Positions 34,458 to 64,000 of a stretch of 64,000 nucleotides of DNA are shown here, piece after piece; the first letter of the stretch is position 1, and each line of letters begins with the position of its first letter. The translations under genes and the position numbers were made by a program. Under the pieces are notes generated by a model. That model was given only the letters and a program-made list of their open reading frames with translations, ran no database searches and was not told where the DNA came from. Location: positions 1-64,000 of the IMG/VR virus record IMGVR_UViG_3300027575_000001. One strand, 5' to 3'. This DNA comes from a virus.

Positions 34458-35463
34458 TCTCGACCTGATTGAACATCGGCGCTTCGTTGCCGATCCGCTT
34501 TCGTGCGAGTTCGGCATACGCAGGATTCAACTCAATCCCTACAAAGTCACGGTGATAGCGCAAGGCGACCGCTCCGGTTGTGCCTGATCCGCAAAACGGA
34601 TCTAGCACAGTGTCGCCTTCTTTGCTGCCGGCGAGGATGCACGGCTCGACCAGTTTTTCGGGGAAAGTGGCGAAGTGTGCCTCGGCATAGGGCTGCGTGG
34701 CGATCTCCCACACGCTGCGCTTGTTGCGGTGAGTCACAGGAAGGCAAACCGCGCTCGTGAACGATGGGTTGTTTTTGTTGCCCGATCCGATAGCTGCGGC
34801 TTTCCGCCGGACCGCCTTCATGTTGCCATTCGTTTTGCCGCCGGCATGGGCAGGCTCGGAGCCGATCTGGTGAATCAAGTCCTGCGAGAGACACGGGTTT
34901 GTGTTCGGACTGCACAGTTCGAGAATTGCCTCCATGTCGCAGTAATACCGCGCGCTCTTGGTCAGCAGGAACAGGTACTCATGCGCCTTGGTGCAGCGGT
35001 CGGTCACACTTTCGGGCATCGGGTTTGGCTTGCTCCAGATGATGTCCTGCCGAAGATACCAGCCGTCGGCGCGCAGGGCAAACGCCAGCATCCACGGGAT
35101 GCCTACGAGGTCTTTTTCCTTCAGACCACATCCATCTGGAATTTTAAGCATCCGAGATTGATTGCCCTCCATATGCAGCAGCTCTCTGTTTCCGCCACCA
35201 GGCGTTCCGCCGTTTCGCGCGTAGCAATCCCCCATATTCAGCCACAGCGTGCCGTCATTGCGCAGCACCCGCCGCACCTCGCGGAACACTTCGACCATTC
35301 GCGCAATGTACTCCTCCGGCGTCTTTTCGAGGCCAAGCTGGCCAGCGGTTCCATAGTCTCTCAGGCCCCAATATGGCGGGCTCGTTACCACGCACTGCAC
35401 GGATTCATCGGGCAGGTCACGCAACCAGTCGAGCACGTCACCGACCAAAATGGTCGCTTTCAT
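34381..35463 (-). CDS. beta-class DNA methyltransferase (N6-adenine or N4-cytosine, PF01555-type)
   Basis: Motif IV VVTSPPYWGLRDYG is N-terminal and motif I VLDPFCGSGTTG is C-terminal. Antisense to the late operon. The 3' end overlaps the portal gene by 77 nt. Confidence 0.85.
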   Translation of the reverse strand: MKATILVGDVLDWLRDLPDESVQCVVTSPPYWGLRDYGTAGQLGLEKTPEEYIARMVEVFREVRRVLRNDGTLWLNMGDCYARNGGTPGGGNRELLHMEGNQSRMLKIPDGCGLKEKDLVGIPWMLAFALRADGWYLRQDIIWSKPNPMPESVTDRCTKAHEYLFLLTKSARYYCDMEAILELCSPNTNPCLSQDLIHQIGSEPAHAGGKTNGNMKAVRRKAAAIGSGNKNNPSFTSAVCLPVTHRNKRSVWEIATQPYAEAHFATFPEKLVEPCILAGSKEGDTVLDPFCGSGTTGAVALRYHRDFVGIELNPAYAELARKRIGNEAPMFNQVEISFPAVPADPIPPQTSLLPAPEPAS

Positions 35464-49100: not shown

Positions 49101-49544
49101 ATGAAGCCGAGCGAGTTTTGGAAAGGCTGGATGAAGTGTACTGGGAAACTCACATGGCGTCCTGCCGTTCCCGCTGATCTTCCCGCAATCCGCCGTCTAA
49201 GAAACGTCTCCGAGCGCTTCATGGGGATGCCCCAACGGGATACGACTCTTTTCTCGATGCCCACCCTTTTGACGCTTGTGGCTGAGAATGAAAAGGGCAG
49301 GATCATCGACTGCATATATCTCGAATCTCAGGTAGAGTTGGTGAAAATGGCGTGCTCCCCGGAGAGCTTGGCCGAGATCGCAGGACTCGAAGAAGACCTC
49401 TCAAAGTGGCTCCGAAGCATCGGGATCAGGACCGTTCTGGCGACCACCTTGGCAGGACCCAAAGGCAAGATGGCGGCGGCGCTGGATGGCCTTGGGTTTA
49501 AGTGCTGTGATCGGGTATGGTCATATTTCAAAAGGCACCTGTAA
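49101..49544 (+). CDS. possible GNAT-family acetyltransferase
   Basis: RPAVPADLPAI...VAENEKGRIID...AAALDGLGFKC gives a GNAT-like N-terminal and C-terminal pattern. Weak call. Confidence 0.3.
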   Translation: MKPSEFWKGWMKCTGKLTWRPAVPADLPAIRRLRNVSERFMGMPQRDTTLFSMPTLLTLVAENEKGRIIDCIYLESQVELVKMACSPESLAEIAGLEEDLSKWLRSIGIRTVLATTLAGPKGKMAAALDGLGFKCCDRVWSYFKRHL

Positions 49545-49568: not shown

Positions 49569-50144
49569 ATGAGCAATGCCGCTGGAAATCAAGCTGCCAT
49601 CGCCAATTCGGCCGCCACGACGGATGAAGGTAACGCAGCTTCGGCTTATGAGGCGGCAACAGGCGCAGATGCGGCCTACCTCAGCAACGTAAACAGCGCC
49701 CTTGCGGCCGGCAATCCCTTCGAGTCCAAGGACTACCTCACCCAGCAAAACATTGCCACTTCCGGAGCGATGAATTCCGAGAATGATGCGGCTCGCCAGC
49801 AAGAGCAGCAGACCGTGGCGCGCACGGGAACCAACAGTGCGGCTTTGGCCAGCGATGTTTCAGCCAATGCCCGCGCCGGCCAGCGACAGCTGACCGATTA
49901 CAATGCCACGCGCGACACGGAAAACGAGGGGACTTGGCTCAATCAGCAAGACAAACTTCTCAGTGATCAGGGGCAGGGAGCCAACATCGAGGCAGGACTC
50001 TACGGAACCTCGGTGAGTGGCCAGGACAGCACGCTGGGCACAGCACAAGAGGGTGAAGACGCCCAAGAGGCTTCTAACGACGGGATGATTGACGCTGGAA
50101 TTGGCGCGGCCGGAGCAGTTGGCGCCGGTATTGCAAGCAGGTAG
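49569..50144 (+). CDS. internal virion protein candidate (Ala/Gly/Gln-rich)
   Basis: 191-aa ORF upstream of the giant ejected-protein gene. Confidence 0.5.
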   Translation: MSNAAGNQAAIANSAATTDEGNAASAYEAATGADAAYLSNVNSALAAGNPFESKDYLTQQNIATSGAMNSENDAARQQEQQTVARTGTNSAALASDVSANARAGQRQLTDYNATRDTENEGTWLNQQDKLLSDQGQGANIEAGLYGTSVSGQDSTLGTAQEGEDAQEASNDGMIDAGIGAAGAVGAGIASR

Positions 50145-50156: not shown

Positions 50157-51683
50157 GTGGCGCTTTTCAGCCAAGACGACGATAGCGAAGACGAGACCCC
50201 CGAGATGGGCTCTGCGTTCTCTGGCGGGCAAGAGCCAAGCGATCCAGACGAAGTTTCCGAGAGTCCTGTGCCCGAAGCGGCTGACCAGGCAGATGAGCCT
50301 GAACCTGCTGCCCCGGATGACGCTAACGCCTACGCGCAGTCGCCCGATGACCCCGGCGCGCAGGAAGAGCCGACCGGCGAGGAGCCGTTTCCCGGGCAAG
50401 ATCAGAGCGCCGATTACGTGGCTCCCGAATCAGAATCCGCGCAGGACTCAGGGAGCGGCCCAGTTCAACTTCCCGCAATGCCTCAGTACGTCGACAATCT
50501 GCCGAATTATCAGGCGCTCGAAAAAGAAATCGCCAACTTCAAGCCGAGCGACTACAAGCCGTCGATAGGACGCAGAATCGCCGCAGCCCTGAGTGGAGGA
50601 GCAGTAGCTTTCGGGAGCCGTAACCCCGAGGCTGGATTGCGGGTAGCGAATCAGGTAAACGATGCGCCGCTGAACCGCGCGCGCGCCGCCGAGCAGCAAA
50701 CGGAGCAGGGAACGCGCCAGCAGATCGCCGACGTAAACGCGCAGAATCAGACACGCCAGGCGGTTTATCAGAATCAGCGCGTAGCAGCGAATGATGCGGC
50801 GTTGAATACCGAGAGGCAACAACGTGGTGAGGATTATGCGGCCCACGCGGTCGTGCGGGACGCGACGATTGTCCCCCAGAGCATGCGTCCTGTCGATCCT
50901 AAGAATCCTCTGGGGGAATGGCAGGGAACTGACGTCAAAGGGCGTCCGGCGACCAACCTTGCTCCTCCGGCGCAGTTCCTCAACTCTCCGGCTGGTAAAG
51001 CAGCTCAAGCCGAGAAAACCATCAGCGATGCGCGCGCAGCAGGACACCCATTCACTCCAGAGCAGGAGCAAGTCGTTCGCTCTGGTGGTCATCTGACCGT
51101 CAGGAACCCGACAAATATTCGGGTGCCTAGCGCCGAATCAGACATGTACAGGGACGCGAGGGAGACTTTCAAATCTCAACATGGCCGCTATCCCCAGACA
51201 ACGGCCGAGGAAAATGAGGTCACGCAGACGGCCCGAGGCACGCTTAAAGATGGCGCTACTGCGGCGCAGGATATTGTGGACGCTGCCAATGGCCAGAAGG
51301 AATCTTACGCGCAACAGTTTACCCGGAACCAAGACGGGACTTATACCAACATCTCAACCGGGGCGATCATTCCGGGCCAGGAATTCAACGCGAAGATTGA
51401 TGGATTCAGAACCGCGGCCAACGTGCGTCTACAGAAACAGGGCTATCAAATCGACCCGCAGGGAAATTTTGATCCCATCGGGCAGTCTTCCAATGGTCAG
51501 CCAGCGCAGCAGCAAGCGGCTCCGCAGCAACAGCAACCAGCCGCGCCTCCCACGGGGGCTCAGCAGGGCAAGACGCAATCGGGCCAGTCGGTCAAGGTCG
51601 GGGACCCGATCACCTATAACGGCAAAACCGGTATCATCGCAGGATTCACGCGGCAAGGGAAGATCATTCCCAAATGGAACTAA
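50157..51683 (+). CDS. internal virion protein candidate
   Basis: 508-aa ORF with a GTG start, an acidic N-terminus and a Gln-rich tail. Abuts the giant gene. Confidence 0.55.
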   Translation: MALFSQDDDSEDETPEMGSAFSGGQEPSDPDEVSESPVPEAADQADEPEPAAPDDANAYAQSPDDPGAQEEPTGEEPFPGQDQSADYVAPESESAQDSGSGPVQLPAMPQYVDNLPNYQALEKEIANFKPSDYKPSIGRRIAAALSGGAVAFGSRNPEAGLRVANQVNDAPLNRARAAEQQTEQGTRQQIADVNAQNQTRQAVYQNQRVAANDAALNTERQQRGEDYAAHAVVRDATIVPQSMRPVDPKNPLGEWQGTDVKGRPATNLAPPAQFLNSPAGKAAQAEKTISDARAAGHPFTPEQEQVVRSGGHLTVRNPTNIRVPSAESDMYRDARETFKSQHGRYPQTTAEENEVTQTARGTLKDGATAAQDIVDAANGQKESYAQQFTRNQDGTYTNISTGAIIPGQEFNAKIDGFRTAANVRLQKQGYQIDPQGNFDPIGQSSNGQPAQQQAAPQQQQPAAPPTGAQQGKTQSGQSVKVGDPITYNGKTGIIAGFTRQGKIIPKWN

Positions 51684-54600
51684 ATGGCAACGACGCCCAT
51701 CCAATTGTCCGATTCCGACCTCGACAGCGGAAGCCAGCAGGCTCCTGCGCAGCCGGTCTCTCTCTCCTCATCTGACATCGACCCGCAGAGCCAGCCGGGT
51801 CCTGTCAATCCATATTCCGACGCAGCTATGGTTGGCACTGCGCCGCGCGAGGGATTCTGGCATTCACTGGGCGCGACCTTCGGGATGACTCCCGAAGCTG
51901 CGCAGGCTCAAAGAGATGAATTTACGCGACATCCAGTGAGATCGACCATTGAAGACATTGGCGGTCCTGCCGTTTCGGGAGCCGAGGGCCTCTACCGCGG
52001 TTTTATGCGCACTACCGATGAGGCCGGACAGGCTGTAACTGCGGCGCAGCAGGGCAATCCGTACTCAGCCGCAGAGCATGCCGCCTACGCGCTGCCTTTT
52101 GTTGGTGAGGGGATCAAAAGGGGGGTAGAGCAACTTGGACCGGACGGCGAGGTCACTCCTGCTTCTGTAGGAACGGCATTGGGCACTGCGATTCAAACAG
52201 CGCCGATGTTGACCGGTGGTGGAGAGGCTGTCAAGACCATAGAGACGCCTGGCGAAGTATTGCCCCCTCCCGGCGAATTGCCTCCTCCGTCGTCCCCCCC
52301 TCCCACGCCCCCAACGATCGAAGGCGGCGGAGCAGGAGGAAGCGCCCCCGAAAGTCTGCAACTGGGAGGGGGCCGTGGTGGCGTTGCTACTGCTACGCGC
52401 ACTCAAACAACACAAGCACCGACGGTAATCCCTGCCAAACTACCGCTAGCCGCCACGCTTCCCCCCGAACTCGAAGCTCTGCAGGCGCGCGCCTCTCAGG
52501 CGACGGACGCCGCGCACGCGGCCGGGCAGGAACTGTTAAAGGCGCAAAGAGCGCAGCGCGCTGCACAGGCCGCTGGTGAACCAGTCCAACCGATCGATCC
52601 TGAATTGGTTCAGAGAGCGCAATATCTTCGCGCACAAGCGCAGGACCTGAACACAACGGCTATGCGCACCAGTGAGGAGTGGCGCAAAGGCCCTTCCCAA
52701 TGGGAGGCGGATCCTGCCGGGCGACAAACCACCGTCCCGAGTCCTGCCGAAGTCGGCGCCGATTACGTCGCCAAAGTGAAAAGCGGAATTCCCCCACAGA
52801 TCGCTGCGGCCGGTCTCGGGATGACCCGCCAGGACCAAGAAACTGTTCACGTGGCGGCCTTCTTTACGCCGTCCGCCGTCGCCACTGCTGCGGCTTCTAA
52901 TAAGCAGCCAGTGGCCCCCCAACAAACAGCCCCTACGCCGCCACCGCAATCGCCCAATCCGGTTGCTATGCAGCAGCAGGCCCAGCAGGCGACAATCGCC
53001 GAAACCGCTGCGCAAGCCCAGGGAATCAAAGCGAAGGCCGACGATATTGCGATGGGCATCCCCCCGCCGAAGCCGCCGCAGGTCCCCATGCCCGCGGGAA
53101 TGGATCAGGGTGCGCTCACGCAGGACACGGTGAATCTGGCTGGCTCGGTCATCATGCGTTTGCCAGCGATGCAGCGCCCTGTCGCGATCAGGGAATCGGT
53201 GGGAAACCTCGCCAACTGGATGCTCGCCACGCGCACGGTAGTCGCACCAGACGGAACCGTAGTCAACGTGGATAGCCAGAAGACGGCACAGACCGAGGCC
53301 GTGAACGTCATCAACAACGAGATCGGCAGGCAGAACGAACTGATTAAAGCTCAGCACGATGCCCAGCAGGACGCCGCGAAAGAGCGCCAGGAAAGCGCCC
53401 AGCAAGCGCAGGAGGAACGTGACGAGGCAATCCGACCCACCGAAACAGCCAAGAAGTCCACAGGAAATGCAGAGCCAGTGGAAATCCCGGACACGCCTGC
53501 TACTCAGAAGGCTGCTGTTGCGCTTGCGCGCGCGCCGATGGACGCGACCTCGGAACAACTTGACGCCCTGATTCGCAGGACCGCGACCGTCACAATGCCG
53601 GTGCGCAAAGCGATGGTCGAGCGGGAAATTCAGCGTCGGGCCAACCGGCAGGAAGATCACAACCAGGCCGGGATGATGGGCGAGCCGATCCCGCCAGGCC
53701 AGAGCCGCGAGGAACTGCAGCGCTGGGCCGATGCTGTAAAGAAAGGCGAACATCCGTTCATTCATGTTCCCGCCAACGTCGCGTGGAAGCCTGCTGGAGT
53801 GGAGGACCTCACGCGCACGCCAGTCAAGGGCGCGGGGACGTTCAGCGGGACCTACTACCACGCGAAGGAGATCGAGGCCGCAGACATTCGTAAAGCGGCG
53901 CGGGACAAAAAGAATCCCCAAGGTGAACTGGATAAGCTGGTCGCCAAGTTCAAAGGGGAAGCGAGTCCTGTTGAACTGAAGGATGAAGACGTTGCGCAGG
54001 TCCACAAGTACGGCAACACTCAGGCCGACATTCCTGACAACTCTGACGCTGGCCGTGCGCTGGCTGCGCTTCGCCAGACAATCAGCCCCGCAGACCTGAT
54101 GGGCGAAGGGCTGGTAAAGGACGCGCACATCACCGTGCGGTATGGCATCGATGGGACCGACACGGCTGGAATCAGGGCATATCTTGAAAAGCAAGCGCCC
54201 TTCCAAGCTACTCTCGGCAAGACAACGGCATTCCCGCCCAGCGAGCATTCAGACGGCGCTGCACCAATCGTCGTCGCCGTAGAGGCCGCGGATCTGCGCA
54301 GGATGGAAAAGGAGCTAGATCAGCACGGGAAGTTTGTCGAGCGGTCGTTCCCTGATTACAAGCCTCACGCAACAGTGGCCTACGTCAAGCCGGAAGCGGC
54401 CAAGAAGTACACAGGACTCGCAACTGCCGAGGGCAAGACCTTTACCGTCAGTTCGGTATCCATCTCCAAGCAAGACGGCAGTATCGAGGAAATCGCATTC
54501 AAGGGCCGTTCTCCAGTTGTTACCTCGGAAGCGCCAAAGGGAGAACAGCCAGCTAACAAACCTGAGATGAAAGCGGCTGAACCTGAGACGAAACGCGGCG

Positions 54601-57600
54601 AAGTCGGCATGATGCTGGCTCCCGGTGAGACGGTCTTGACTGTGACAGGACGCAAGACGACACCTTTCCCCCGGGTGGATACCAGCACCAATGGAAAGGC
54701 TACGAACACCGTCAAGCGTGTTGACCAGTGGCTCATGGATAACGCCATCCTTGAGGCGCAATCCCGGCATGACGAGTTCAACCTGCGCCAGTTCCAACAG
54801 AACAGCCAGAAGCCGTCTCCCGCCGACAAGGACTCAGCCGAGATGTACCTGTTCGACAAGGACAGCGTACAGCCGATTCCTAAGCCGTTCTTGAAACCGT
54901 TGCCCGCCCCAGCCGCCAAAGCCATCACCGCCCTAGTCGATGAGCAAGCCTCGCAGGACCCCACTGCAACCCTCGATAGCGTCCTGCGGGACAAGGACAC
55001 AGGACACTTTGTTGCCCAAGCTCTGGTAAACGATGGTATCCTCACCAGTAGTGCAGAAAACGTGAACCCGAGAAACGCTCTACTAACGACTTCCGCCAGA
55101 GCCAAAGTAGGGGATGCGCTCCTAGGTGAACTGTTGCCTGCTGAAGTGATTGAGCAGACGCCTGACTTCCTGAAACAGAAACTCTTGGGCACGATGGGCA
55201 GCATCAAAGCCATCGCTGGCGCTGAGGACGGCTGGAACCTCAAGCCTCATATCGTTGCCGCCGCCGAACGGTACGATCAAATCTTCCGTGGGCTTGATAC
55301 CCACGAGCAGGGTCCTGTCGTCGAGGCGATTCTCAAGAAGCTGGACGAGCCGATCGACAAGATGCGGCAGGCATTCTCGTCGTTCGCAGTCGCCGCCACG
55401 AATCACGATCCAAGCGATAAACCGTTCTTCGATTTCAACCTGGCTTTCGGAACGGAACTGACGCAAGAGCAGTACGAGAAGGGGCTGAAGCTGGTTGAGA
55501 AGGCCGCCAAGGGAGAGCCTGTAAAGGTCAGCCAGCACACATCGGAGATGGCACTCATGCGCGCTGACTCCACGCCTATGCTTGACATTCATCACGAGCC
55601 GACCGGATGGCTGAAAGTTGAGCACGACAACGGCACCGTTCTCGTTCACCCTCACGAGAACACGATGATCTACTTCACCAGCAAGGATCGCCGGTCTGGA
55701 ACTGAGGCCATGCGCGCTAAAGCCGAGGCGCAAGCATATGCCATCGACAATCCAGTTGCTCCGAAGCCTACCGGCCCGGCCGGAGAGTTGATCGTCAAGC
55801 CGCTCTTCCAGCAGCAGGAAGCCAAGCCTCTCGCCAAGGGCGACAGGGTAACCTACAGGACCAACAAAGGGAAAGAGCGCACCGGAGAAGTAGCTTGGAC
55901 CGACGGCAAAAAGGTGCGGATCGCGGACAACGGCTCGACTGTCAACAAGAACATCGAGGATGTAAGTCCTGTAAAAGCCGCGAGCGCCGAGGAATCGAAG
56001 GGCGAGCCAACTGGCGAAGCAACCCTCGTTGACGCGCTGCAATTGAAGTTTGAGCACGGCGCAGGACCGAAGGACTACAACGGCCTGAAAAAGATCGTCA
56101 CTGAGTTCGATGGCAAGGAACCTGACCAGCTCCGCATGAAGGAGGCTCAGGAAGCCTACGAGGCCATGCTGAACCGGGTCGCCTCCGAGATCATCACCAG
56201 CCAAGCAAAGAACTTTGGAGCGAGCACTTCTGGTAATCAGCGTGTCTTTGAACGCCTTGTAGGCCTCTACCAGGGCCAGCCCAACCTTGCTATCAGGACC
56301 AGCACCAGCATCGGGAACCAGGCCTATTCGACGCCACTCCCACTCGCCTTCGTGGCCGACCGCTTTGCCGGGGTCGACTGGCACAGCACGGTCTATGAGC
56401 CCACGGCTGGCAATGGGGCGCTGCTGATCGCTGCAAACCCCGAGAAGACCGCAGCGAACGAGTTGGACCCGGCGCGCGCGCAGACTCTTAAGGACGAGGG
56501 ATTCAACGTCGAGAGCCACGATGCAACTGTCTGGACACCGAACAATCGCTATGACGCCGTAGTCGCAAACCCGCCGTTCGGCAACCTTCCGGGTCCTGTC
56601 AAAGTGGATGGGTACAACATCGTAAAACTGGACCATCTGATCGCAGCCAAAGCTCTCGGCGTGATGAAGGACGCCGGAAAAGCTGCAATCATCCTCGGCG
56701 CAGGATCCAGAGAAGAGGCTGGCGAAGTCACGAACGCTGCTCGTCCCTTCTTTAATTGGCTCTACGCTCACTACAACGTGGTCTCTGATTTTGAACTCGA
56801 GGGAGACCTTTACTCACGCCAGGGTGCAGCATGGCCTGTGCGTGTGATCGCCATTGACGGCCGGGTTCGCTCCGCCAAAGTGAGTCCCGTTGCCGACACC
56901 ATTCCACGCTTGAAAACATGGGAGGAAGTTTATGACAAAGCTGCTGAATATCTGGGCTCCAATCTTGAAGGACAGCGACCGGCAGGTAATGTCGCTGGCG
57001 GTGCCGTGCGGGCCGAAAGCCCCGACACCGGAGCAATACCGGGAACTGTTGCAGGACGAAATCAGCCGGCTGATCGAGGAGAATCCTCAGCGGGCCCGGC
57101 AGGACCTCGAAGCGATGGGGGGACCAAGTTACAGCCCGGACCTATCCAACATAGCGGTCGGGTCCCCGACCCAGGAGTGGGGACCACAGATAGCACAGTT
57201 AGACCAAATGGGGATGTTGCTCGCTCAGATCGACTGGCAGAAGGAGAACCCCCCGCGCGAGTTGTCAGAAGACAATCTGCCGAGCCTGATGGACATCCTG
57301 CAAATGCTCTGAGTCCTATCGATACGATCGTCGACGAAAGCAACCAGTTCCAATCGAGCTACCGGCCCCACTCCGCGAAGAAGGACGTTGCAGTGATGGC
57401 GCCCAAGGCTCTGATAGGACCCATGCAGCAAGCGATGGACCGCGTTGCGGAGGAAGCTGGCGACATCGACGAGTGGGTGACGAACGAATTAGGTTACCCT
57501 GACGTCAAGACAATGCATGAGGCTTTCATGGGCATCCAGACGGACGCCATCGCCGCGGCAATTCATCAGATGCAGCGCGGGAAAGCTATCGTGGTTGGAG

Positions 57601-60600
57601 ATCAGACCGGCGTAGGAAAGGGCCGCGTAGCAGCAGCCATGATCCGCTGGGCGGAACTTCACAGCCATACGCCCGTTTTTGTCACTGAAAGTGCGCCCCT
57701 ATTCTCGCCGATGTACGCGGACCTGCAGGACATTGGCTCGGGGCAGACGATCTCTCCGCTGCTCTTCAACGCAGACGCTTCGATCACTGATGCGAGGACC
57801 GGAAGCAAAATCTTCCAGAATCCCGGCGCCATGCGTCCTGTGCTCGACAGGATTCGAGAGACGGGCGAGTTGCCGAAGGGACGCAACGCCGTCTTTCTTA
57901 CCTACTCGCAAATCAATACCGACAACCGACAACAGTTGACGCTTCAGCGGATCGCCGAGAACGCGGTATTCGTCCTCGACGAGAGCCACAACGCAGGGGG
58001 CGATTCGAATACGGGCAATTTCCTCTCCGAGTTGCTGACAGGATCAAAAGGTGTTGTCTTCCTGTCGGCTACCTGGGCCAAGCGTCCTGACAATCTGCCG
58101 CTCTACGCGGGGAAGACGGACATCTCGATCGCCATTCCTGATCGAGCCAAAGTTGCCGACGCAATCATGGCCGGCGGTGCACCGCTGCAAGCCGTCCTCA
58201 CAAGCCTGCTGGCTGAGACTGGCCAGTTTGTGAGGCGCGAGCGCTCTTTCGACGGGATTGAAATTAAGAATCTCGTGGACGAGGCGAACAAGGCCGAGGA
58301 CACGCGGATCTCTGACAAGGTGACTGAAGTCCTGCGCGCCATCGTGAAAGCCGACTCGATGTACCACAACCTCGATTTTGAGCGGATTAAGGCGCAAGCC
58401 ATGACACGCGGCGGTGGTGCACAGAGCAAAGTGCAGCCGATTCAGCATATGGAGTTCTCGTCTGTCGTTCACAACATGGTGAAGCAACTCCTGCTAGCGC
58501 TTAAGGCAGATACGGCCGCAGACGAAATCATTGCGTCCATCCAGCGCGGCGAAAAGCCAGTGTTCGCGCTCGAAAACACGATGGGCGCATTCCTCGACAG
58601 CTACATCGGTGGTCACAACCTGAAAGAAGGTGATTCCCTCAAAGACCTGGATTATTCGAGGATTAGCGATCGCGCCCTGATGCGCACTCGCTATTACAAC
58701 GAGACCGATGTGCAGGGCAACAAAACCCGCGTTGAGGTTCCGTTGGATGACCTGAGCGCGCCGGTGCGCGAGGCCTACGATGAGGCCCAGGCCCTGATCG
58801 ACAATCTGAAAGTTGATCTTCCCGTTTCGCCCATCGACTACATCAGGAACAAAGTCGAGAAGGCCGGATACAAGATTGCGGAGATTACCGGCCGCACCGC
58901 GAGAATCGACTACAGCGGCGACACTCCGAAGCTCGGCACGGTTCCAGGCATTGAGAAAAAAGATCGCGTCAACACGGCGACTCAATTCAACAACGGCGGT
59001 CTGGACGCGCTGATTATCAACCGCGCCGGATCGACCGGCATCTCTCTCCACGCTTCCGAGAAGTTCCGCGACCAACGCCCGCGGCACATGATTATCGGCC
59101 AGCCTGCCGGGGACGTCAACATCGTCATGCAGATTCTCGGCCGCGTCAACAGGACCGGCCAACTCGTTCTCCCGCGGTACACATTCCTCGCTGTGGCGCT
59201 CCCGGCTGAGATGCGTCCGGCGATCAACCTCGCAAAGAAGATGAAGTCGCTGAACGCGAACGTTTCGAGCAATACCCGCGCGGCGACATCGATTCAGGCC
59301 GTAGACCTGATGAACAAATATGGCGACAGGACCGTAGGGCAGTACCTCTTTGATAATCCCGAGATGAGCCGGTTGCTAGGCCTGAGCGCGGATACTAACG
59401 AGAAGGGAGAGCCCGGCGCGAACGAGGGCCTGGCGATGAAGGCGACCGGCCATTCGGCGTTGCTGCCTGTAGTTCAGCAGCAGGAGTTCATGGATTCAAT
59501 CTCGGAGGCGTACACAAACTACATCGACTTCCTCGACGAGACCGGCCAGAACGATCTTGAGCCACGGACCTATGACTACTCGGCGCGCGAACTCGACAGC
59601 AAGCGGATGTATCAGGGAACAGATTCGAGTTCGCCATTCGGACAGGACGCGACCTACGGCGAGTACTCGATCAAACGCCAGGGCAAGCCGTTTACCCCCG
59701 AAGAGGTCATGCAGCGGATCGCTGACACGTCTGGGCAAGAGGCAATGAAACTTGCACCCCATGAGCGCGATACGCTTGCAGCCCGCGCGTTGGCCGCTCA
59801 CTTCGAGGAACTCTACACGCCCTATTACGCAGGACTCGTGGCAGCCAGTTCGATGGAGCGCGCACAGCAGATGCGCACCCGCGGCCGTCAACTCCTGAAC
59901 GACTACCGGGTGGGAACCGGAGTTCGCATTGAGATCAATGGCGAGTCCTACAACGGCGTCGTGACTAATATCGAGGGAGCAAAAAAGCCCTCTGGAAATC
60001 CCTATGCCCCGAGTTCGCTGCAATTCACCATCGCCGTGAACAGCGGCCTACGGCAGACCAAGGTTCCCGGCTCGCAGATGGACGCGCTGGTCACGTCGAA
60101 CCTCGGGCGCAATGCTGACGTGCGCCAACTCTTCAAGGATTACGGCAGCGACCGGCAGAAGGCCAAGATCATCACCGGAAACCTCTTGGGCGCGTTCGGT
60201 GAATTAAAGCAGGGCGCAAAAGGCAGGATTATTAGCTTTACGATGGAGGACGGAACATCGAAGCTGGGCATCCTCATGCCGTCGAAATTCGACATCAACA
60301 CCGATGTTGAGGGAACCTACGCCATGCGCACGCCCGAGGGTGCTGAGAAGTTCCTCGAGGAGAACGGCTCATATCTCCAGAGCAGCGGATCGGAGATCGG
60401 GGTTTTCGGTCCTACCAATTCACGGGACGAAATGGAGATCAGGACCAAGATGTCGAAGGCGGCATCTGGCAAGTTCTTCCTGGATCCCAAACTGCTCGAA
60501 ACCGTGCAGGGCGGCGAGTTCGCGTCGAGCAGCGGCTTGATGAAAGCCACGGTGAAGGAAGGTCACGAACTGGATGCGCTCAAGGCCATCATGGGCAAGA

Positions 60601-63374
60601 TCGCGCTCTACGCATCGCCGTCTCACGTCGACCAGGCGCGGACTATAGACGAGAAAGCAAAAGCCGATCTCGATAAGCCAAAGCCGCCGCGGCGCGCGAC
60701 AGGATCCACAACGATGTCGTTCCTCGGCACCGGCGCTCTCGACCCCTACGTCACGAGGGTTCTGCAGCCGGTTGTGGACTATGCCAAGAAAGCGGTCGTG
60801 AGCACATGGAAGGAAGCCACAACCGCCGTGAAACGGGCCGGCCAGAGCGGAAAAGCTATGGGGTGGGAAGTGGCCAATACCTTGTTCCCCACCGTGGGCG
60901 TCGATAAGGACGCGCAGGACATCATGGGCAAAGCTCTCGGAGAACCTGCTCTTCGTCTATTCGAAGCCGGGCAATTCCTGCACAGCGTTAATCAGATGTT
61001 CGAACGGATGGAACCCGATGGGCCAGATGGATGGATCGAGTTTGTAGATCGCTGGCAGACCGGCAAAGAGCAGCCTACGCAGGACCTAGAGCAAGCCCAG
61101 CAGTTCATGCAAGAGGTCATGAGCCAGCAGCGCATGCGGGAGAAGGTCGCCGTCAACCTGGGAAAGAAGAAGAGCACCCAAGTCGAACTGAGTGATAAGT
61201 CGAATTATTTCCCGAATCGCTACAAAGTCGCTCCGGGCGGCGAGAAGACGCTGACAGAGGATCAGCAGATCGCGCGTCTCGGCCAGGTGTCCCGCCGGCC
61301 GTTCGAAGGCTCGAAGGCGTTCATGAAGCAGCAGCGTTACACCCTGAAGCAAGCCGTTGAAGAGGGTGCAGTTCCCTTGGGGAATCCTGTCGCGATGCTG
61401 CTGCGGCGTTTGCAGGAGGGTGCGAAATTCGTTGCGGCCCTGTATGCCTGGTACAACTTCAAGGATCAGGGCCTTGCGATGTTCCTGAAAAACGGGAAAA
61501 AGTTGCCCAAGGACTTTAGCTTTGTCGACGACAAGAGCGGCAACGTGTGGCGCGTCGTTGAGGCCGTCGACGGAAATACCTACCCAATTCAAACCGGCCG
61601 CTGGGCGATCCAAAAGGATGCGGCGCGGCTGCTCAATAACTACCTGAGTATCGATCACATCGCTGGCAGTGAGGTTCTCAGTGCGTTCGTCAAGTTGAAG
61701 AATTTCTCGACGGAAATGAAACTTGCAATCTCGGCTTTCCATTGGGCCTACATCACGATCGAGAATATGGCCTCCGGCCTTAACCTTGGGATGGACAAAG
61801 TAATCAACCAAGGTATTCGCGCGCTGGACCCGACCAAAGTGTCGGCAGGACTCGCGGATATTGCGAAGTCGATTGTGGCTCCCTATACGGCAATCAAGCG
61901 CGGTGGCGAGATCATCCAGTACGCTCGGAACCCTGATGAGTTCCTCGAGTCACCCGAGGGCAAGAAATTCGCCGAGCGTTACCCCGATTTCCCGCACCTT
62001 ATGGAGCTGCTTTTCGCCGGCGGCCTGCGGTGGAACATTGCCAGCCAGTTCCAGCAGTCATTCGGAGATCACTGCCTCGACGCCTGGAAGAATGGCGAGA
62101 TCGGCAAAGGCATCGGCAAATTCCTGCCCTGGCTCTCCCACGGGATCATGAGCCCGCTGTTCAGCCACTACATCCCGCGGTCGAAGTGGGCGTTTGCGGT
62201 TGAGCTCCTATCGACCAAGCTCGCACAGTACAGTCAGGCCATCGCGGACGGCGACAAGACCGAGGAAGAGATCGCGCGCGAAGTTGCACAGACCACGGAC
62301 AACCGCTTTGGCGAACTCAATTGGGACTCTCTCTACCTCAACAACGACCTCAAGGGAGCACTTCAATTCTTCTTCCGGTCGGCAACCTGGGCCATTGGCT
62401 CCTGGCGCGGTGCCTACCAGGCGGTCAAAGAGCAGGCCAGTTCAAAGATGTTTGACGACAAAATGTTCCAGCACTTCGATGCGCAAGCCAAAAAGGGAGA
62501 TTGGATCAGCCAAGCCCGGCGCGCCACATCCCGGCTCCCCCAGCTCGGAGTCAACGCTGGCTGGATCTTGTCGATGGCGCTTTTGACGAGTACCTTGGGC
62601 AGCGTAACCGAGAAACTGGCGACAGACAAATATCCGTGGGATTGGGCGCAGCAGGACTCGAAGACCAACGGATTATCACCAGAAGCCAACTCGGCCCTCG
62701 AAGCGATGCACCCGCGCACCGGTGCGCTGGATGAGCACGGCGAGCCGGTCAGAGTCTCGTGGCCGACAGGACTCAAAGATTACGAGCATGGCTTTGAGAG
62801 TCCTGGCCGCTACGCCAAAGGCAAAGTCTCTGACGTCGCCGTGAACGCCTGGGATACCTTCGTTCAGAATCGGGATGCTTTCGGTGACTACGTTTGGAAT
62901 CCCAATGACCCGTTCTACAAAGAGATGTGGCAGGGGCTCAAGTACAACGCCGTTGGCGATCTCACGCCGATGTCGGCCGACAACTGGATGCGCCCCTACG
63001 GCCCGCAGGACACGGCCAGCAAAGCCGAGCGATTCACTGGTATGATCGGCGGCGCACCGCCGGCTCTCGATCGCTCCCACGCGCTTACAGAAGCGCTGGC
63101 GCGGCGTGCAGTCTCTGATCCCCACACCCCGCTGACTCCCGAGCAGCAGGCGGAAAGGGACTATGCCAAGGATCATCCTACGGTGCACAGCGTCCGGCAG
63201 GCGGCGCGCGAGAAGAACCTCACCTACCTCGACCGAGTTTTCAAGGAACTCAACTATACTGACGCTAAGGCGATCTACGACGATCCGAAAACGACAGCGG
63301 CCGAACGGCAGGAGCTTAAGCCCCTGTTGGACAAGAAGCGGATCGACGCTATCCGGTCTGCCAGAAGGAAATAA
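51684..63374 (+). CDS. 3896-aa polyvalent protein (2H phosphoesterase, N6-adenine MTase, strawberry-notch/SNF2-like helicase, ~1400-aa C-terminal region with hydrophobic segments)
   Basis: A single uninterrupted ORF. The domain motifs are listed as separate features below. Confidence 0.85.
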   Translation: MATTPIQLSDSDLDSGSQQAPAQPVSLSSSDIDPQSQPGPVNPYSDAAMVGTAPREGFWHSLGATFGMTPEAAQAQRDEFTRHPVRSTIEDIGGPAVSGAEGLYRGFMRTTDEAGQAVTAAQQGNPYSAAEHAAYALPFVGEGIKRGVEQLGPDGEVTPASVGTALGTAIQTAPMLTGGGEAVKTIETPGEVLPPPGELPPPSSPPPTPPTIEGGGAGGSAPESLQLGGGRGGVATATRTQTTQAPTVIPAKLPLAATLPPELEALQARASQATDAAHAAGQELLKAQRAQRAAQAAGEPVQPIDPELVQRAQYLRAQAQDLNTTAMRTSEEWRKGPSQWEADPAGRQTTVPSPAEVGADYVAKVKSGIPPQIAAAGLGMTRQDQETVHVAAFFTPSAVATAAASNKQPVAPQQTAPTPPPQSPNPVAMQQQAQQATIAETAAQAQGIKAKADDIAMGIPPPKPPQVPMPAGMDQGALTQDTVNLAGSVIMRLPAMQRPVAIRESVGNLANWMLATRTVVAPDGTVVNVDSQKTAQTEAVNVINNEIGRQNELIKAQHDAQQDAAKERQESAQQAQEERDEAIRPTETAKKSTGNAEPVEIPDTPATQKAAVALARAPMDATSEQLDALIRRTATVTMPVRKAMVEREIQRRANRQEDHNQAGMMGEPIPPGQSREELQRWADAVKKGEHPFIHVPANVAWKPAGVEDLTRTPVKGAGTFSGTYYHAKEIEAADIRKAARDKKNPQGELDKLVAKFKGEASPVELKDEDVAQVHKYGNTQADIPDNSDAGRALAALRQTISPADLMGEGLVKDAHITVRYGIDGTDTAGIRAYLEKQAPFQATLGKTTAFPPSEHSDGAAPIVVAVEAADLRRMEKELDQHGKFVERSFPDYKPHATVAYVKPEAAKKYTGLATAEGKTFTVSSVSISKQDGSIEEIAFKGRSPVVTSEAPKGEQPANKPEMKAAEPETKRGEVGMMLAPGETVLTVTGRKTTPFPRVDTSTNGKATNTVKRVDQWLMDNAILEAQSRHDEFNLRQFQQNSQKPSPADKDSAEMYLFDKDSVQPIPKPFLKPLPAPAAKAITALVDEQASQDPTATLDSVLRDKDTGHFVAQALVNDGILTSSAENVNPRNALLTTSARAKVGDALLGELLPAEVIEQTPDFLKQKLLGTMGSIKAIAGAEDGWNLKPHIVAAAERYDQIFRGLDTHEQGPVVEAILKKLDEPIDKMRQAFSSFAVAATNHDPSDKPFFDFNLAFGTELTQEQYEKGLKLVEKAAKGEPVKVSQHTSEMALMRADSTPMLDIHHEPTGWLKVEHDNGTVLVHPHENTMIYFTSKDRRSGTEAMRAKAEAQAYAIDNPVAPKPTGPAGELIVKPLFQQQEAKPLAKGDRVTYRTNKGKERTGEVAWTDGKKVRIADNGSTVNKNIEDVSPVKAASAEESKGEPTGEATLVDALQLKFEHGAGPKDYNGLKKIVTEFDGKEPDQLRMKEAQEAYEAMLNRVASEIITSQAKNFGASTSGNQRVFERLVGLYQGQPNLAIRTSTSIGNQAYSTPLPLAFVADRFAGVDWHSTVYEPTAGNGALLIAANPEKTAANELDPARAQTLKDEGFNVESHDATVWTPNNRYDAVVANPPFGNLPGPVKVDGYNIVKLDHLIAAKALGVMKDAGKAAIILGAGSREEAGEVTNAARPFFNWLYAHYNVVSDFELEGDLYSRQGAAWPVRVIAIDGRVRSAKVSPVADTIPRLKTWEEVYDKAAEYLGSNLEGQRPAGNVAGGAVRAESPDTGAIPGTVAGRNQPADRGESSAGPAGPRSDGGTKLQPGPIQHSGRVPDPGVGTTDSTVRPNGDVARSDRLAEGEPPARVVRRQSAEPDGHPANALSPIDTIVDESNQFQSSYRPHSAKKDVAVMAPKALIGPMQQAMDRVAEEAGDIDEWVTNELGYPDVKTMHEAFMGIQTDAIAAAIHQMQRGKAIVVGDQTGVGKGRVAAAMIRWAELHSHTPVFVTESAPLFSPMYADLQDIGSGQTISPLLFNADASITDARTGSKIFQNPGAMRPVLDRIRETGELPKGRNAVFLTYSQINTDNRQQLTLQRIAENAVFVLDESHNAGGDSNTGNFLSELLTGSKGVVFLSATWAKRPDNLPLYAGKTDISIAIPDRAKVADAIMAGGAPLQAVLTSLLAETGQFVRRERSFDGIEIKNLVDEANKAEDTRISDKVTEVLRAIVKADSMYHNLDFERIKAQAMTRGGGAQSKVQPIQHMEFSSVVHNMVKQLLLALKADTAADEIIASIQRGEKPVFALENTMGAFLDSYIGGHNLKEGDSLKDLDYSRISDRALMRTRYYNETDVQGNKTRVEVPLDDLSAPVREAYDEAQALIDNLKVDLPVSPIDYIRNKVEKAGYKIAEITGRTARIDYSGDTPKLGTVPGIEKKDRVNTATQFNNGGLDALIINRAGSTGISLHASEKFRDQRPRHMIIGQPAGDVNIVMQILGRVNRTGQLVLPRYTFLAVALPAEMRPAINLAKKMKSLNANVSSNTRAATSIQAVDLMNKYGDRTVGQYLFDNPEMSRLLGLSADTNEKGEPGANEGLAMKATGHSALLPVVQQQEFMDSISEAYTNYIDFLDETGQNDLEPRTYDYSARELDSKRMYQGTDSSSPFGQDATYGEYSIKRQGKPFTPEEVMQRIADTSGQEAMKLAPHERDTLAARALAAHFEELYTPYYAGLVAASSMERAQQMRTRGRQLLNDYRVGTGVRIEINGESYNGVVTNIEGAKKPSGNPYAPSSLQFTIAVNSGLRQTKVPGSQMDALVTSNLGRNADVRQLFKDYGSDRQKAKIITGNLLGAFGELKQGAKGRIISFTMEDGTSKLGILMPSKFDINTDVEGTYAMRTPEGAEKFLEENGSYLQSSGSEIGVFGPTNSRDEMEIRTKMSKAASGKFFLDPKLLETVQGGEFASSSGLMKATVKEGHELDALKAIMGKIALYASPSHVDQARTIDEKAKADLDKPKPPRRATGSTTMSFLGTGALDPYVTRVLQPVVDYAKKAVVSTWKEATTAVKRAGQSGKAMGWEVANTLFPTVGVDKDAQDIMGKALGEPALRLFEAGQFLHSVNQMFERMEPDGPDGWIEFVDRWQTGKEQPTQDLEQAQQFMQEVMSQQRMREKVAVNLGKKKSTQVELSDKSNYFPNRYKVAPGGEKTLTEDQQIARLGQVSRRPFEGSKAFMKQQRYTLKQAVEEGAVPLGNPVAMLLRRLQEGAKFVAALYAWYNFKDQGLAMFLKNGKKLPKDFSFVDDKSGNVWRVVEAVDGNTYPIQTGRWAIQKDAARLLNNYLSIDHIAGSEVLSAFVKLKNFSTEMKLAISAFHWAYITIENMASGLNLGMDKVINQGIRALDPTKVSAGLADIAKSIVAPYTAIKRGGEIIQYARNPDEFLESPEGKKFAERYPDFPHLMELLFAGGLRWNIASQFQQSFGDHCLDAWKNGEIGKGIGKFLPWLSHGIMSPLFSHYIPRSKWAFAVELLSTKLAQYSQAIADGDKTEEEIAREVAQTTDNRFGELNWDSLYLNNDLKGALQFFFRSATWAIGSWRGAYQAVKEQASSKMFDDKMFQHFDAQAKKGDWISQARRATSRLPQLGVNAGWILSMALLTSTLGSVTEKLATDKYPWDWAQQDSKTNGLSPEANSALEAMHPRTGALDEHGEPVRVSWPTGLKDYEHGFESPGRYAKGKVSDVAVNAWDTFVQNRDAFGDYVWNPNDPFYKEMWQGLKYNAVGDLTPMSADNWMRPYGPQDTASKAERFTGMIGGAPPALDRSHALTEALARRAVSDPHTPLTPEQQAERDYAKDHPTVHSVRQAAREKNLTYLDRVFKELNYTDAKAIYDDPKTTAAERQELKPLLDKKRIDAIRSARRK
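54050..54560 (+). other. 2H phosphoesterase (LigT/Acb1-fold) domain of the giant protein
   Basis: Two HxT motifs about 80 aa apart: DAHITVRYG (His at about aa 815) and KPHATVAYV (His at about aa 895). Confidence 0.65.
56300..56960 (+). other. gamma-class N6-adenine DNA methyltransferase domain of the giant protein
   Basis: Motif I YEPTAGNGALL (about aa 1572) and motif IV VVANPPFGN (about aa 1629). Confidence 0.75.
57530..59190 (+). other. strawberry-notch-like SF2 helicase domain of the giant protein
   Basis: Walker A GDQTGVGKGR (about aa 1979), DExH VLDESHNAGG (about aa 2099), FLSATWA, NRAGSTGISLHAS and QILGRVNRTGQ (motif VI). Confidence 0.75.
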
Positions 63375-63377: not shown

Positions 63378-63635
63378 ATGACCGTGTGGGCTCAACAGGC
63401 TTTCGATCACGTCCGGCAGGTTGCGCGCAGGAAGAATCTCTTCACGACAGATGACGTGATGGAATCGATGGGCGACATTCCATGTACGGTCGATCGGCAC
63501 GTCATGGGCTCTGTGATGAATCGAGCAGCAGGACTCGGGATCATCCAGAAGACCGATACCTTCGTTCCATGTAAACGCAGAAATCAGCACGGTAGCCCTC
63601 GCCGCGTGTGGAAATCCTTGGAGATAGCAGGATGA
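63378..63635 (+). CDS. hypothetical protein
   Basis: 85-aa ORF. Confidence 0.5.
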   Translation: MTVWAQQAFDHVRQVARRKNLFTTDDVMESMGDIPCTVDRHVMGSVMNRAAGLGIIQKTDTFVPCKRRNQHGSPRRVWKSLEIAG

Positions 63636-64000
63636 CGCAGGACCCTGAAAAGCCCCTCATGCCCCGGCGCCCGATAACCGCCTCTGACCCCTTGCGTCCT
63701 GTTGCTCACCGCAAACCTGAGAAGCTGAAACCCCTACGCAAGCGGGATAAGGCGAACCCCGAGCAAATCGAAGCCGACTGCTTGAGTCTCACTGTGATCG
63801 AAAAGGCTTGTGCCATCATCTGCGTCGAGAAAGACAAAGAATCCGCGGCCATCGAACTGAACATGAGCCTGACCGAAGTGCAGGAAATCCTCGACTCGGC
63901 ACCGGTACGCTTGTTCCTATCGAAGTTGCAGGACGAGGAAATCAAGGAACTGGCGAAGACCAAGGTTCGCAGGATGCGCAAAGTCGGCATCTGCAAAGCG
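63632..64000 (+). CDS. 5' part of a probable small terminase subunit (open to the window end)
   Basis: ATG at 63632 overlaps the upstream stop (ATGA). 123 codons with no stop. The segment AAIELNMSLTEVQEILD is HTH-like and the position at the end of the late module fits. Not in the ORF track because it has no stop. Confidence 0.35.
   Translation, partial: MTQDPEKPLMPRRPITASDPLRPVAHRKPEKLKPLRKRDKANPEQIEADCLSLTVIEKACAIICVEKDKESAAIELNMSLTEVQEILDSAPVRLFLSKLQDEEIKELAKTKVRRMRKVGICKA

Follow-up and report, generated by a model that had tools for sequence, protein, structure and literature searches.

How would a virus use a single protein of 3,896 amino acids (aa) that carries three unrelated enzymes ahead of a long C-terminal region, and where would such a protein act? 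The question is raised by an open reading frame (ORF) at positions 51684-63374, on the + strand, of the first 64,000 nucleotides (nt; the window, in what follows) of the IMG/VR virus record IMGVR_UViG_3300027575_000001. This giant ORF starts with an ATG, ends with a stop codon and contains no internal stops in its 3,896 codons. A sequence-only reading of the window, made without database searches, had proposed that its product is a polyvalent protein of the virion in which a 2H phosphoesterase, an adenine methyltransferase (MTase) and a strawberry-notch (Sno) helicase are fused. The family matches and motifs reported here bear out the fusion of a 2H domain with a gamma-class N6-adenine MTase and a strawberry-notch helicase of superfamily 2 (SF2), inasmuch as the three effector domains (aa 813-932, 1544-1725 and 1952-2555) lie in one uninterrupted ORF. 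With regard to the place of action, we consider it reasonably probable that the giant protein is packaged in the virion and ejected from it, like the 'DarB-like' giants of the F116/Bcep22 type. The C-terminal module, judged by its modelled fold, is probably an internal-virion or ejection-protein module, and the N-terminal ~3,000 aa are predicted to represent an exchangeable enzyme load destined for the host cytoplasm.

The MTase-strawberry-notch unit extends over aa ~1445-2990 (56016-60653, + strand), as delimited by Pfam and PHROG matches, motifs and homologues encoded by plasmids. Its MTase core (aa 1544-1725, nt 56313-56858, +) matches MTase families of PHROGs (E = 3e-16 and 2e-9), and its helicase (aa 1952-2555, nt 57537-59348, +) matches the Pfam families AAA_34 over aa 1966-2200 (43.2 bits; cut-off 27) and Helicase_C_4, the strawberry-notch C-terminal domain, over aa 2397-2555 (72.4 bits; cut-off 30.5). 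The motifs follow one another in the order STP (~1549), EPTAGNG (~1571), NPPF (1629), GVGKG (1976), DESH (2099) and QILGRVNR (2483); those on which the sequence-only reading had based its two assignments were found where it had placed them and agree with the family matches. The predicted MTase fits the gamma class of N6-adenine enzymes, because the order is TP...EPTAGNG...NPPF and motifs I and IV follow each other without an intervening target-recognition domain. The helicase has both strawberry-notch families above their cut-offs and intact Walker A, DExH and VI motifs and, as an SF2 helicase of the SWI2/SNF2 clade that lies C-terminal of a gamma-class adenine MTase, it completes the MTase-SF2 helicase dyad described, with P1 DarB as the archetype, in the study that defined polyvalent proteins (Iyer, Burroughs, Anand, de Souza and Aravind 2017, J Bacteriol, PMC5512222).

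Homologues of this unit are encoded by plasmids, of which 623 records match it, up to ~aa 2990, at 29-34% identity. Homology with the plasmid 'strawberry notch' proteins, of which that of Pseudomonas putida pND6-2 (1,742 aa) is an example, covers the entire MTase-Sno unit, but these are free-standing proteins of ~1,400-1,750 aa from conjugative or mobilisable plasmids and possess neither the 2H domain nor the N-terminal region nor the C-terminal module of the giant protein. Among the 50,697 phage records searched with aa 1401-3896 (tblastn, E <= 1e-5), only BS-TP4 and two records of Acinetobacter phage MD-2021a matched; a megablast search of phages with the giant gene and a phmmer search of the PDB with the whole protein gave no match. 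The best cultured-phage match to the MTase-helicase core, with 33% identity over aa 1489-2679, is gp3 of the Bacteroides phage BS-TP4, a 5,391-aa 'hypothetical protein' encoded next to the portal gene. It resembles the giant protein in having a Sno-type helicase within a giant polyvalent ORF, and differs from it in having InPase, LPD38 near the C-terminus and no 2H domain; it also carries ddrB-ParB, as do two relatives of the giant protein in viral contigs (L004 and L018).

Four viral contigs from different IMG/VR metagenome datasets encode uninterrupted orthologues, of 3,760 aa (L006), 3,796 aa (L007), 3,771 aa (L011) and >4,316 aa (L008), which are collinear with the giant ORF and 59-78% identical to it across ~2,500-2,900 aa. 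That same range of identity applies to the stretch from aa ~1437 to 3896, i.e. the MTase, the helicase and the C-terminal module, which we regard as an anchor for reasons given below.

The C-terminal module (aa 2940-3896; 60501-63371, +) was delimited by means of its homologues, a profile census, AlphaFold2 and Foldseek. A word-index search with the module detected 8 homologues (P0001-P0008), and a second word-index profile search, intended to deepen the alignment, detected 14 proteins. In an HMMER search of 1.84 billion cluster representatives (clusters at 50% identity), 4,603 matched at E <= 1e-3 and 2,887 at E <= 1e-30. For the best 150 of the 4,603, the matched region extends to the C-terminus, or close to it, in proteins that range from 498 to 4,516 aa, and 21 of these 150 exceed 3,000 aa. 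Similarly, the carrying ORF in 16 IMG/VR loci varies from 918 aa (the module alone) to >4,316 aa. The cargo can consist of ddrB-ParB and a Sno helicase (L004), of ddrB-ParB alone (L018) or of SNF2-related and RadC domains (L037), and several other relatives have no recognisable cargo. Based on these sequence comparisons, the module is the apparent constant anchor beneath a variable N-terminal cargo across the family. It has no match in Pfam, PHROGs, NCBIfam (E <= 0.01) or the PDB, and the search of PDB sequences with its profile returned nothing meaningful. We describe a new and large anchor family, from uncultured phages whose hosts may be Acidobacteriota, that is invisible to these four resources and to every cultured phage searched, and that carries cargo from nothing to ~3,600 aa; searches of uncultured phages for pre-packaged anti-defence enzymes could use the module as a marker. 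The last ~1,400 aa had been described as featureless apart from hydrophobic stretches, a view that does not survive: ~430 aa of them belong to the plasmid-type strawberry-notch unit as its C-terminal extension, the last ~850-950 aa are the highly conserved module, and the hydrophobicity amounts to one weak Kyte-Doolittle peak (1.29) at aa 3621-3641.

As modelled, the ~850-950 aa of the module are mostly alpha-helical, with a small beta sheet. The AlphaFold2 model built from 51 sequences attained a predicted local distance difference test score (pLDDT) of 82.9 and a predicted template-modelling score (pTM) of 0.81; its confidently folded part starts at ~aa 3064 (nt ~60873), and the linker from aa 2940 to ~3063 (modelled residues 1-124) is predicted to be disordered. 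An initial model from a 9-sequence alignment was too poor to use (pLDDT 51.6) and the PDB fold search made with it was meaningless. Comparison of the better model with solved structures by Foldseek yielded no match, the best E-value being 0.19 for membrane transporters, which we took as helical-bundle noise. Comparison with the predicted viral structures in BFVD yielded 37 matches at E <= 1e-3, and the BFVD matches are nearly all to the last fragments of long proteins of uncultured Caudovirales, under names such as 'Large polyvalent protein associated domain', DNA helicase, ART-PolyVal-like, zeta toxin, RelA/SpoT and SLT transglycosylase. Bordetella phage BB8 contributes an 'Internal protein D' (5.4e-4, probability 0.99) and Vibrio phage VP2 an 'Internal virion protein' (1.7e-3); podovirus 'Structural protein' entries and a protein of Cellulophaga phage phi19:3 match as well. 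The modelled fold would therefore resemble the C-terminal pieces of polyvalent proteins and, more weakly, IVP-D (internal virion protein D).

The genomic positions of distant relatives point in the same direction. On a 2.97-Mb deltaproteobacterial contig (L038), in what seems to be a prophage, a portal gene (phrog_156, 4e-126) lies ~7 kb upstream of the module gene and a tail protein gene lies directly downstream of it. In another locus (L029), a module-only protein is encoded five genes downstream of a crAss_MUZ muzzle gene (PF25731/PF25729), the same place, relative to the muzzle gene, that the ejected cargo genes occupy in PhicrAss001 (PMC10172136). In the window itself, the giant gene closes a tightly packed + strand block that follows fibre-like proteins, and its ATG adjoins the TAA of the gene upstream (TAAATG). 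From 49101 to the window end the intergenic gaps are 0-24 nt, and no terminator-like site was found on the + strand inside or just 3' of the giant ORF. The three packed genes upstream (49101-49544, 147 aa; 49569-50144, 191 aa; 50157-51683, 508 aa; all +) are, by size and order, candidates for small and medium internal virion proteins. Their sizes parallel those of T7 gp13, gp14 and gp15. They are also similar in size to the genes at the corresponding place in Burkholderia phage JC1, where gp67 (196 aa) and gp68 (510 aa) precede gp69 (4,515 aa; PMC9144972), i.e. a ~190-aa gene followed by a ~510-aa gene ahead of the giant one.

JC1 is among the phages with analogous giants. Its DarB-like gp69, which follows virion proteins of 196 and 510 aa and takes up 22% of the genome, was detected in CsCl-purified virions (PMC9144972). 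The 3,787-aa 'PLxRFG domain-containing protein' gp60 of phage H66, with LPD3, LPD23, an MTase and NF032893 at aa 3105-3772, is recorded as 'verified by mass spectrometry as part of the virion'. Other giants of this kind are the proteins of Agrobacterium phage Atu_ph08 (4,877 aa, with Peptidase_M15, InPase, PBECR1, Eco57I MTase, SNF2 and LPD39), LASTA (4,433 aa, DarB-like antirestriction), Mwe-JY07 (4,985 aa, putative DNA methylase), Parlo (3,764 aa, DarB-like antirestriction protein) and Y11 (3,372 aa, methyltransferase). Homologues of IVP-D (T7 gp16), among them N4 gp50 and H66 gp60, 'variably host ... domains destined for the cytoplasm' (Hardies et al. 2016, PMC4819975), and in N4 gp50 the enzymatic core lies inside the IVP-D homologue, the C-terminal region of which is required for encapsidation (PMC4819975; PMC5512222). 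The sequence-only reading had regarded as unusual both the size of the giant protein and the inclusion of a 2H domain in its chain. Neither is, since cultured podoviruses carry equivalents of 3,026-5,391 aa and 2H is listed among the phage-type domains of polyvalent proteins (Iyer et al. 2017, PMC5512222). Because of these known giants (H66, JC1, Atu_ph08, BS-TP4 and others) and the survey of Iyer et al., the architecture too has precedents, and a giant ejected podovirus protein that bears anti-restriction enzymes on an internal-virion anchor is a design already documented.

Within this design, the giant protein shares with the DarB-like or PLxRFG giants (F116, Bcep22, LASTA and Atu_ph08 types) an adenine MTase in the N-terminal cargo, often accompanied by an SF2 helicase, and a helical, conserved C-terminal module of ~700-900 aa. 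It has none of the LPD3, LPD23, LPD39, InPase and PBECR domains of the giants compared here, and its helicase is of the AAA_34 plus Helicase_C_4 type, unlike that of Atu_ph08 (SNF2-rel_dom plus Helicase_C). With the polyvalent proteins of Iyer et al. it has in common the combination of several effectors, the MTase-SF2 dyad (TP...NPPF) and a cargo that is mosaic between orthologues; the location among late or virion genes that characterizes those proteins is seen for the present family in the distant relatives L038 and L029. Strawberry-notch helicases occur in polyvalent proteins only 'in a few instances' (PMC5512222), and the C-terminal module is not among the families represented in Pfam. We propose T7 gp16 (IVP-D), the C-terminal region of N4 gp50 and the PLxRFG domain carried by the F116/Bcep22-type giants as analogues of the module. 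T7 gp16, N4 gp50 and the cargo proteins of PhicrAss001 belong to the large, helical internal proteins that phages eject via the tail (PMC4819975; PMC10172136). The giant protein differs from these in its predicted anti-defence cargo, in place of an RNA polymerase or lytic transglycosylase, and in the lack of a solved-structure match for its module.

Several observations weigh against packaging with an anti-defence function and need to be set beside those that favour it. The case for packaging, of the giant protein as of the module family, is drawn entirely from sequences and models, and the module was not found in cultured phages, in the 50,697-record collection. The TM-scores of the BFVD matches are moderate (0.2-0.46), and the link to IVP-D rests on Foldseek comparison between predicted structures, because no homology is detectable at the level of sequence. 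Unlike the C-terminal modules of the PLxRFG giants, the present one does not match NF032893 (PLxRFG/tail-700, NCBIfam), for which H66 gp60, run alongside, scored 796 bits; when a profile of the module from 18 sequences was compared by hhalign with a PLxRFG profile from 8 phages, the probability was 0.4-1.6% (0.4% for the single sequence), below 2% in every case; and there is no profile similarity to the LPD38-bearing C-terminal 1,100 aa of BS-TP4 gp3. A family motif 'RRPLEGxKGF' resembles 'PLxRFG', and we treat this as coincidence because the homology tests of the module against the PLxRFG domain were negative. The zincin-like metallopeptidase that is frequent, but not obligatory, in polyvalent proteins was not detected, there being no HExxH in the 3,896 aa and no peptidase family match, and no Pfam LPD family matched the giant protein at E <= 0.1, with the limit that the presence of an LPD36 model in the library is unconfirmed. 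As for the 2H domain, its score with Acb1 (Pfam PF23474; aa 813-902, 15.1 bits, E = 0.019) is below the cut-off of 27. No neighbour in the window could be identified as a capsid, portal or tail protein by Pfam, PHROGs, PDB or tblastn searches and, because the neighbours are unidentifiable, the 'virion module' context within the window is deduced from gene size, composition and order. Virion-borne anti-restriction cargo, as the sequence-only reading had it, nevertheless stands as the best-supported reading because of the fold of the anchor, the virion-gene context in the distant relatives (L038 and L029) and the analogous giants of H66 and JC1 found in virions; the support for it is indirect.

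If the giant protein is indeed packaged and ejected, it might function as follows. The protein would be made late, from the packed block of tail-like and candidate internal proteins, and would be incorporated into the capsid by means of its C-terminal module. It would then be extruded through the tail, partly unfolded, ahead of or together with the DNA, and the module would contribute to a conduit that spans the cell envelope. The strawberry-notch SF2 translocase would track the incoming genome while the fused gamma-class MTase methylates the DNA, thereby shielding it in cis from restriction, as P1 DarB does with type I systems. The 2H domain might act as Acb1 does and hydrolyse immune signals that are cyclic or 2'-5'-linked (oligo)nucleotides, or it might hydrolyse the 2',3'-cyclic-phosphate ends of RNA, and signalling defences would be blunted before any phage gene is expressed. 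The working model for this scheme, by analogy, is P1 DarB, a virion-carried MTase plus DExH helicase that protects the entering genome, in cis, from type I restriction (PMC5512222). Homology with DarB was not detected, P1 not being among the three phage records that matched aa 1401-3896 by tblastn at E <= 1e-5. DarB is a 2,255-aa head protein of a myovirus, and it is packaged via DarA, Hdf and DdrA, not via a fused ejection-protein module. The comparison with Acb1 (the T4 gp57B-type anti-CBASS phosphodiesterase, directed against cyclic-oligonucleotide-based antiphage signalling systems) is based on the 2H fold and the two HxT motifs; Acb1 is a free protein of ~150 aa, unlike the present 2H domain, which is embedded in a giant chain.

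The alternative that survives best, though we consider it unlikely, is that the protein is not packaged and is a cytoplasmic anti-defence or DNA-metabolism protein, encoded at the end of the late block by chance, whose C-terminal module would be an unrelated scaffold or regulatory domain. The homologous MTase-Sno proteins of plasmids are ordinary cytoplasmic products; and the giant protein and its module family are known from sequence alone, with modest TM-scores for the link to IVP-D and no window neighbour that is recognisable as structural. Yet a module that lies at or near the C-terminus in the best 150 representatives, under a variable cargo, follows the typical pattern of a delivery or anchor domain, and it occurs between portal and tail genes in one relative and near a muzzle gene in another. 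Moreover, the architecturally equivalent giants are proven virion components, and an MTase that is to guard the incoming DNA must be present before phage genes are expressed.

Slightly less likely, in our estimation, is that the anchored strawberry-notch translocase is a motor for the entry of the genome and that methylation is a by-product of threading the DNA past the MTase. In T7 and N4, the role of entry motor is filled by gp16 ratcheting or by transcription by RNA polymerase. A role of this kind would account for the covalent joining, in this family, of an SF2 translocase of double-stranded DNA to an IVP-D-like anchor, a linkage that arose separately in the giants of the F116/Atu_ph08 type (SNF2-rel_dom plus Helicase_C plus PLxRFG) from another helicase clade and an anchor unrelated in sequence. 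It would also be in keeping with the fact that close relatives conserve no part of the gene better than the MTase-helicase-anchor block (59-78% identity) and with the precedent of N4 gp50, an ejectable, IVP-D-anchored nucleic-acid motor (PMC4819975; PMC13434306). The DNA entry of the family as a whole cannot depend on the translocase, however, because many members carry the anchor without a helicase (the module-only proteins of 918-937 aa, and L018 with ddrB-ParB only); H66 gp60 has an MTase and no helicase detectable with Pfam, and the same MTase-Sno unit works free-standing on plasmids. A fuller version of this idea, in which the translocase is anchored at the mouth of the conduit, pulls in the genome and methylates the targets that pass, while the 2H domain destroys nucleotide alarm signals, we would rate a shade lower still. 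If an entry motor of this sort does exist, it would constitute a third solution to DNA entry by podoviruses, besides T7 gp16 with the host RNA polymerase and the N4 virion RNA polymerase, and it would explain at least two independent fusions of SF2 enzymes to IVP-D-like anchors that are unrelated in sequence.

It is rather improbable that the gene ultimately gives rise to separate functional products, cleaved or split into cargo and anchor, as is the case for F116, with its two genes, or P1 DdrB. In F116, the homologue of H66 gp60 is indeed divided between two genes (Hardies et al., PMC4819975), the linker ahead of the folded module is predicted to be disordered, and in three contigs (L002, L004 and L033) the region of the giant gene is broken by frame changes, which in L004 (called as 2,709 aa plus 959 aa) and L002 (many fragments) occur near the boundary between cargo and anchor. 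The window and its four close relatives, in opposition to this, keep one frame over 11-13 kb, no HExxH peptidase domain is present that might carry out cleavage, and frameshift or insertion-deletion errors scattered along the sequence seem to underlie the breaks of L002 and L033, those of L002 being many and dispersed; these two contigs have neighbouring ENA analysis accessions. The splits of L004, L002 and L033 may be sequencing errors or real splits that resemble the two-gene layout of F116. In L004, two frame changes lie inside ~600 nt (9437-10011), just upstream of the anchor module; in L002 (3300-14110) and L033 (5745-15435), the giant gene, or in the case of L033 its position, is called as many smaller genes.

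Despite the several frames seen in some related contigs, the notion that the ORF is an artefact of assembly or frameshifting that fuses several genes can be discarded, and the frame accepted as genuine, because L006, L007, L008 and L011 contain uninterrupted and collinear orthologues; proteins of >3,000 aa account for the 21 of 150 family representatives noted above, and the G+C content of third codon positions (GC3) is even, at 0.66-0.72, from aa 429 to the end, with a different value (0.58) in the low-complexity aa 1-428.

One cysteine (aa 3464) is found among the 3,896 residues of the giant protein, and we would conjecture that this fits unfolded passage through a narrow channel.

Returning to packaged and ejected cargo as the favoured reading, the exchangeability of the load can be followed in the N-terminal part of the giant protein. 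Residues 1-428 (51684-52967, +) form a low-complexity N-terminus rich in Pro, Ala, Gly and Gln, with no BLAST match in L006, L007 or L011 and with a match limited to aa 1-46 in L008. The richness in Pro, Ala and Gln noted in the sequence-only reading is borne out by the composition of the first 600 aa (10-12% Pro, 13-19% Ala and 6-12% Gln). The N-terminal domain that follows (aa 429-770; 52968-53993, +) is conserved, with 58-64% identity in L006, L007, L008 and L011 and further occurrences in L002 and L004; it has no assigned function and no Pfam, PHROG or NCBIfam match. Then comes the 2H phosphoesterase cassette (aa 771-953; 53994-54542, +), in which aa 813-932 (nt 54120-54479) match the Pfam family 2_5_RNA_ligase2 (32.1 bits, E = 1.4e-7; cut-off 27). 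The two HxT motifs reported earlier, HITV at 815 and HATV at 895, are separated by ~80 residues, as is characteristic of the 2H superfamily, and the region also matches phrog_755 at 1.3e-7. The closest relatives of the cassette, with 54-77% identity, are in proteins called at 187-321 aa, among them a 311-aa gene amid small genes of an NCBI metagenome-assembled genome (MAG) contig. Several, including some that are 66-77% identical, have precomputed Acb1 hits, a few of which are marked weak or faint. Next to the cassette lies a mosaic block (aa 954-1279; 54543-55520, +), and aa 952-1114 are common to the giant virion proteins of the F116/H66-type Pseudomonas podoviruses: 26 Pseudomonas phage records match by tblastn at 39-58% identity, and BLASTP with H66 gp60 gives 49% identity (E = 3e-33).

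Neither of these elements is constant among the relatives. The segment from aa 771 to ~953-1064, which holds the 2H domain, is absent from all of L006, L007, L008 and L011, and among the relatives compared the domain is found only in the window and in L002, where it is placed after the block that follows it in the window. L007 has the mosaic block and L008 has part of it, whereas in L006 and L011 the alignment does not begin before aa 1065-1073. Because the close relatives share the block of MTase, helicase and C-terminal module and are without the 2H domain, it is by all indications of the alignments the 2H domain, not the MTase-helicase core, that is the mobile cassette of the giant gene.

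The opposite had been suggested in the sequence-only reading, which took the MTase-helicase segment to be possibly acquired separately on the ground that the octamer CAGGACTC does not occur between 54420 and 59829. The octamer is indeed absent there, but the conclusion fails. A gap of 8.2 kb free of CAGGACTC at 23096-31345 exceeds the 5.4-kb gap in question; random placement of 45 sites produces a gap of at least 5.4 kb in 64% of cases; and the giant ORF as a whole contains 8 octamers, compared with 8.2 expected. Furthermore, GC and GC3 of the segment are the same as in the rest of the giant gene, and the block is kept, at 59-78% identity, in all the close relatives. We therefore rejected separate acquisition. 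The octamer has an abundance of its own, with 45 occurrences in the window compared with 2.7 expected from shuffles, 33 of the 45 being on the + strand; a Chi-like, packaging, regulatory or methylation-related site are the candidates for its role.

Given that the overall design is documented, the novelty of the locus lies in the anchor family, in the cassette exchange and in the convergence of architecture. The splicing of a 2H domain into an otherwise conserved giant gene is a clear instance of cassette exchange within one lineage. The joining of a strawberry-notch MTase-helicase, otherwise typical of plasmids, to a probable ejection module repeats the F116/Atu_ph08 design with parts unrelated in sequence, and this convergence raises the question of whether the translocase is merely an aid to methylation or a part of DNA entry.

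The genes around the giant ORF are less informative. No sequence matches were found for the 147-, 191- and 508-aa upstream proteins; the last of these is conserved in L002, L004 and L011. Downstream are an 85-aa ORF (63378-63635, +) and an ORF (~63633 to 64000, +) that runs off the end of the window and is conserved beside the giant gene in relatives; its homologue in L006 (12834-13454) has no PHROG match. The giant gene had been said to stand before the terminase. That placement is not supported, as the genes downstream of the giant gene, read in the relatives, have no Pfam or PHROG match, no terminase being found among them, and the sole terminase-like match of the window lies elsewhere. This is a 571-aa HerA/FtsK-type ATPase (18826-20541, +; Pfam DUF87, 4.9e-13) that matches phrog_2666 ('terminase large subunit') at 1.8e-14. 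A classical terminase large subunit (TerL) was not found in the window and a 401-aa gene downstream of the giant gene in L006 (14221-15426) has no PHROG match, so that the packaging ATPase of this lineage may be unusual.

By eye and composition, the region upstream encodes a scaffold-like protein rich in Ala, Pro and Glu and several large fibre-like proteins rich in Ser, Thr and Gly. Ten large + strand proteins of the window have no PHROG match, and they include one sub-threshold Pfam match: a 1,531-aa protein (22935-27530, +) with a GDSL/SGNH lipase-esterase domain (26.4 bits; cut-off 32.9), which may be a tail-spike-like deacetylase or esterase. The candidate portal and capsid proteins and the 508-aa protein matched nothing in phages by tblastn and nothing in the PDB. 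CxxC...CxxC motifs resembling zinc ribbons are present in the 807-aa portal candidate (32034-34457, +) and in a 413-aa protein (40197-41438, +), for neither of which Pfam, PHROGs or cultured phages yielded a homologue; nor did the PDB for the portal candidate. An endolysin is encoded at 29891-30409. Between the 807-aa and 530-aa genes of the + block, the - strand encodes a second MTase, distinct from that of the giant protein (34381-35463; phrog_67, E = 1e-78). The early block on the - strand (genes at 5701-6849, 9139-11181, 11297-12616 and 579-2165) encodes a radical-SAM-like protein (phrog_9298, 3e-39), an SbcC-like ATPase, an exonuclease and a DnaB helicase.

In four relatives, at a position corresponding to just past the right end of the window, GroEL/GroES (Cpn60/Cpn10) genes are found on the opposite strand (L002, 17705-20317; L003, 9215-11274; L004, 17823-19403; L030, 8867-11630). 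Near them are genes for Mom, Tad2-like, Sequestin and 3'-phosphoadenosine-5'-phosphosulfate (PAPS) reductase proteins, together with a tyrosine integrase gene in L004, and the region looks, from its predicted gene content, like an island of anti-defence and accessory genes beside the giant gene block.

The C-terminal module is also encoded on MAG contigs of Acidobacteriaceae, Terriglobia and Blastocatellia (L034, L039 and L040), Nitrospirae (L036), Bacillota (L035) and Bacteroidales (L037), in addition to the deltaproteobacterial contig mentioned above. The closest MAG match, with 34% identity, is in an Acidobacteriaceae MAG from palsa soil with a GC content of 58.3%, compared with 57.8% for the window, and the 2H cassette matches the Acidobacteria phage Tunturiibacter phage Tunturi_5. 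Because of these three resemblances in sequence and composition, the host may be an acidobacterium.

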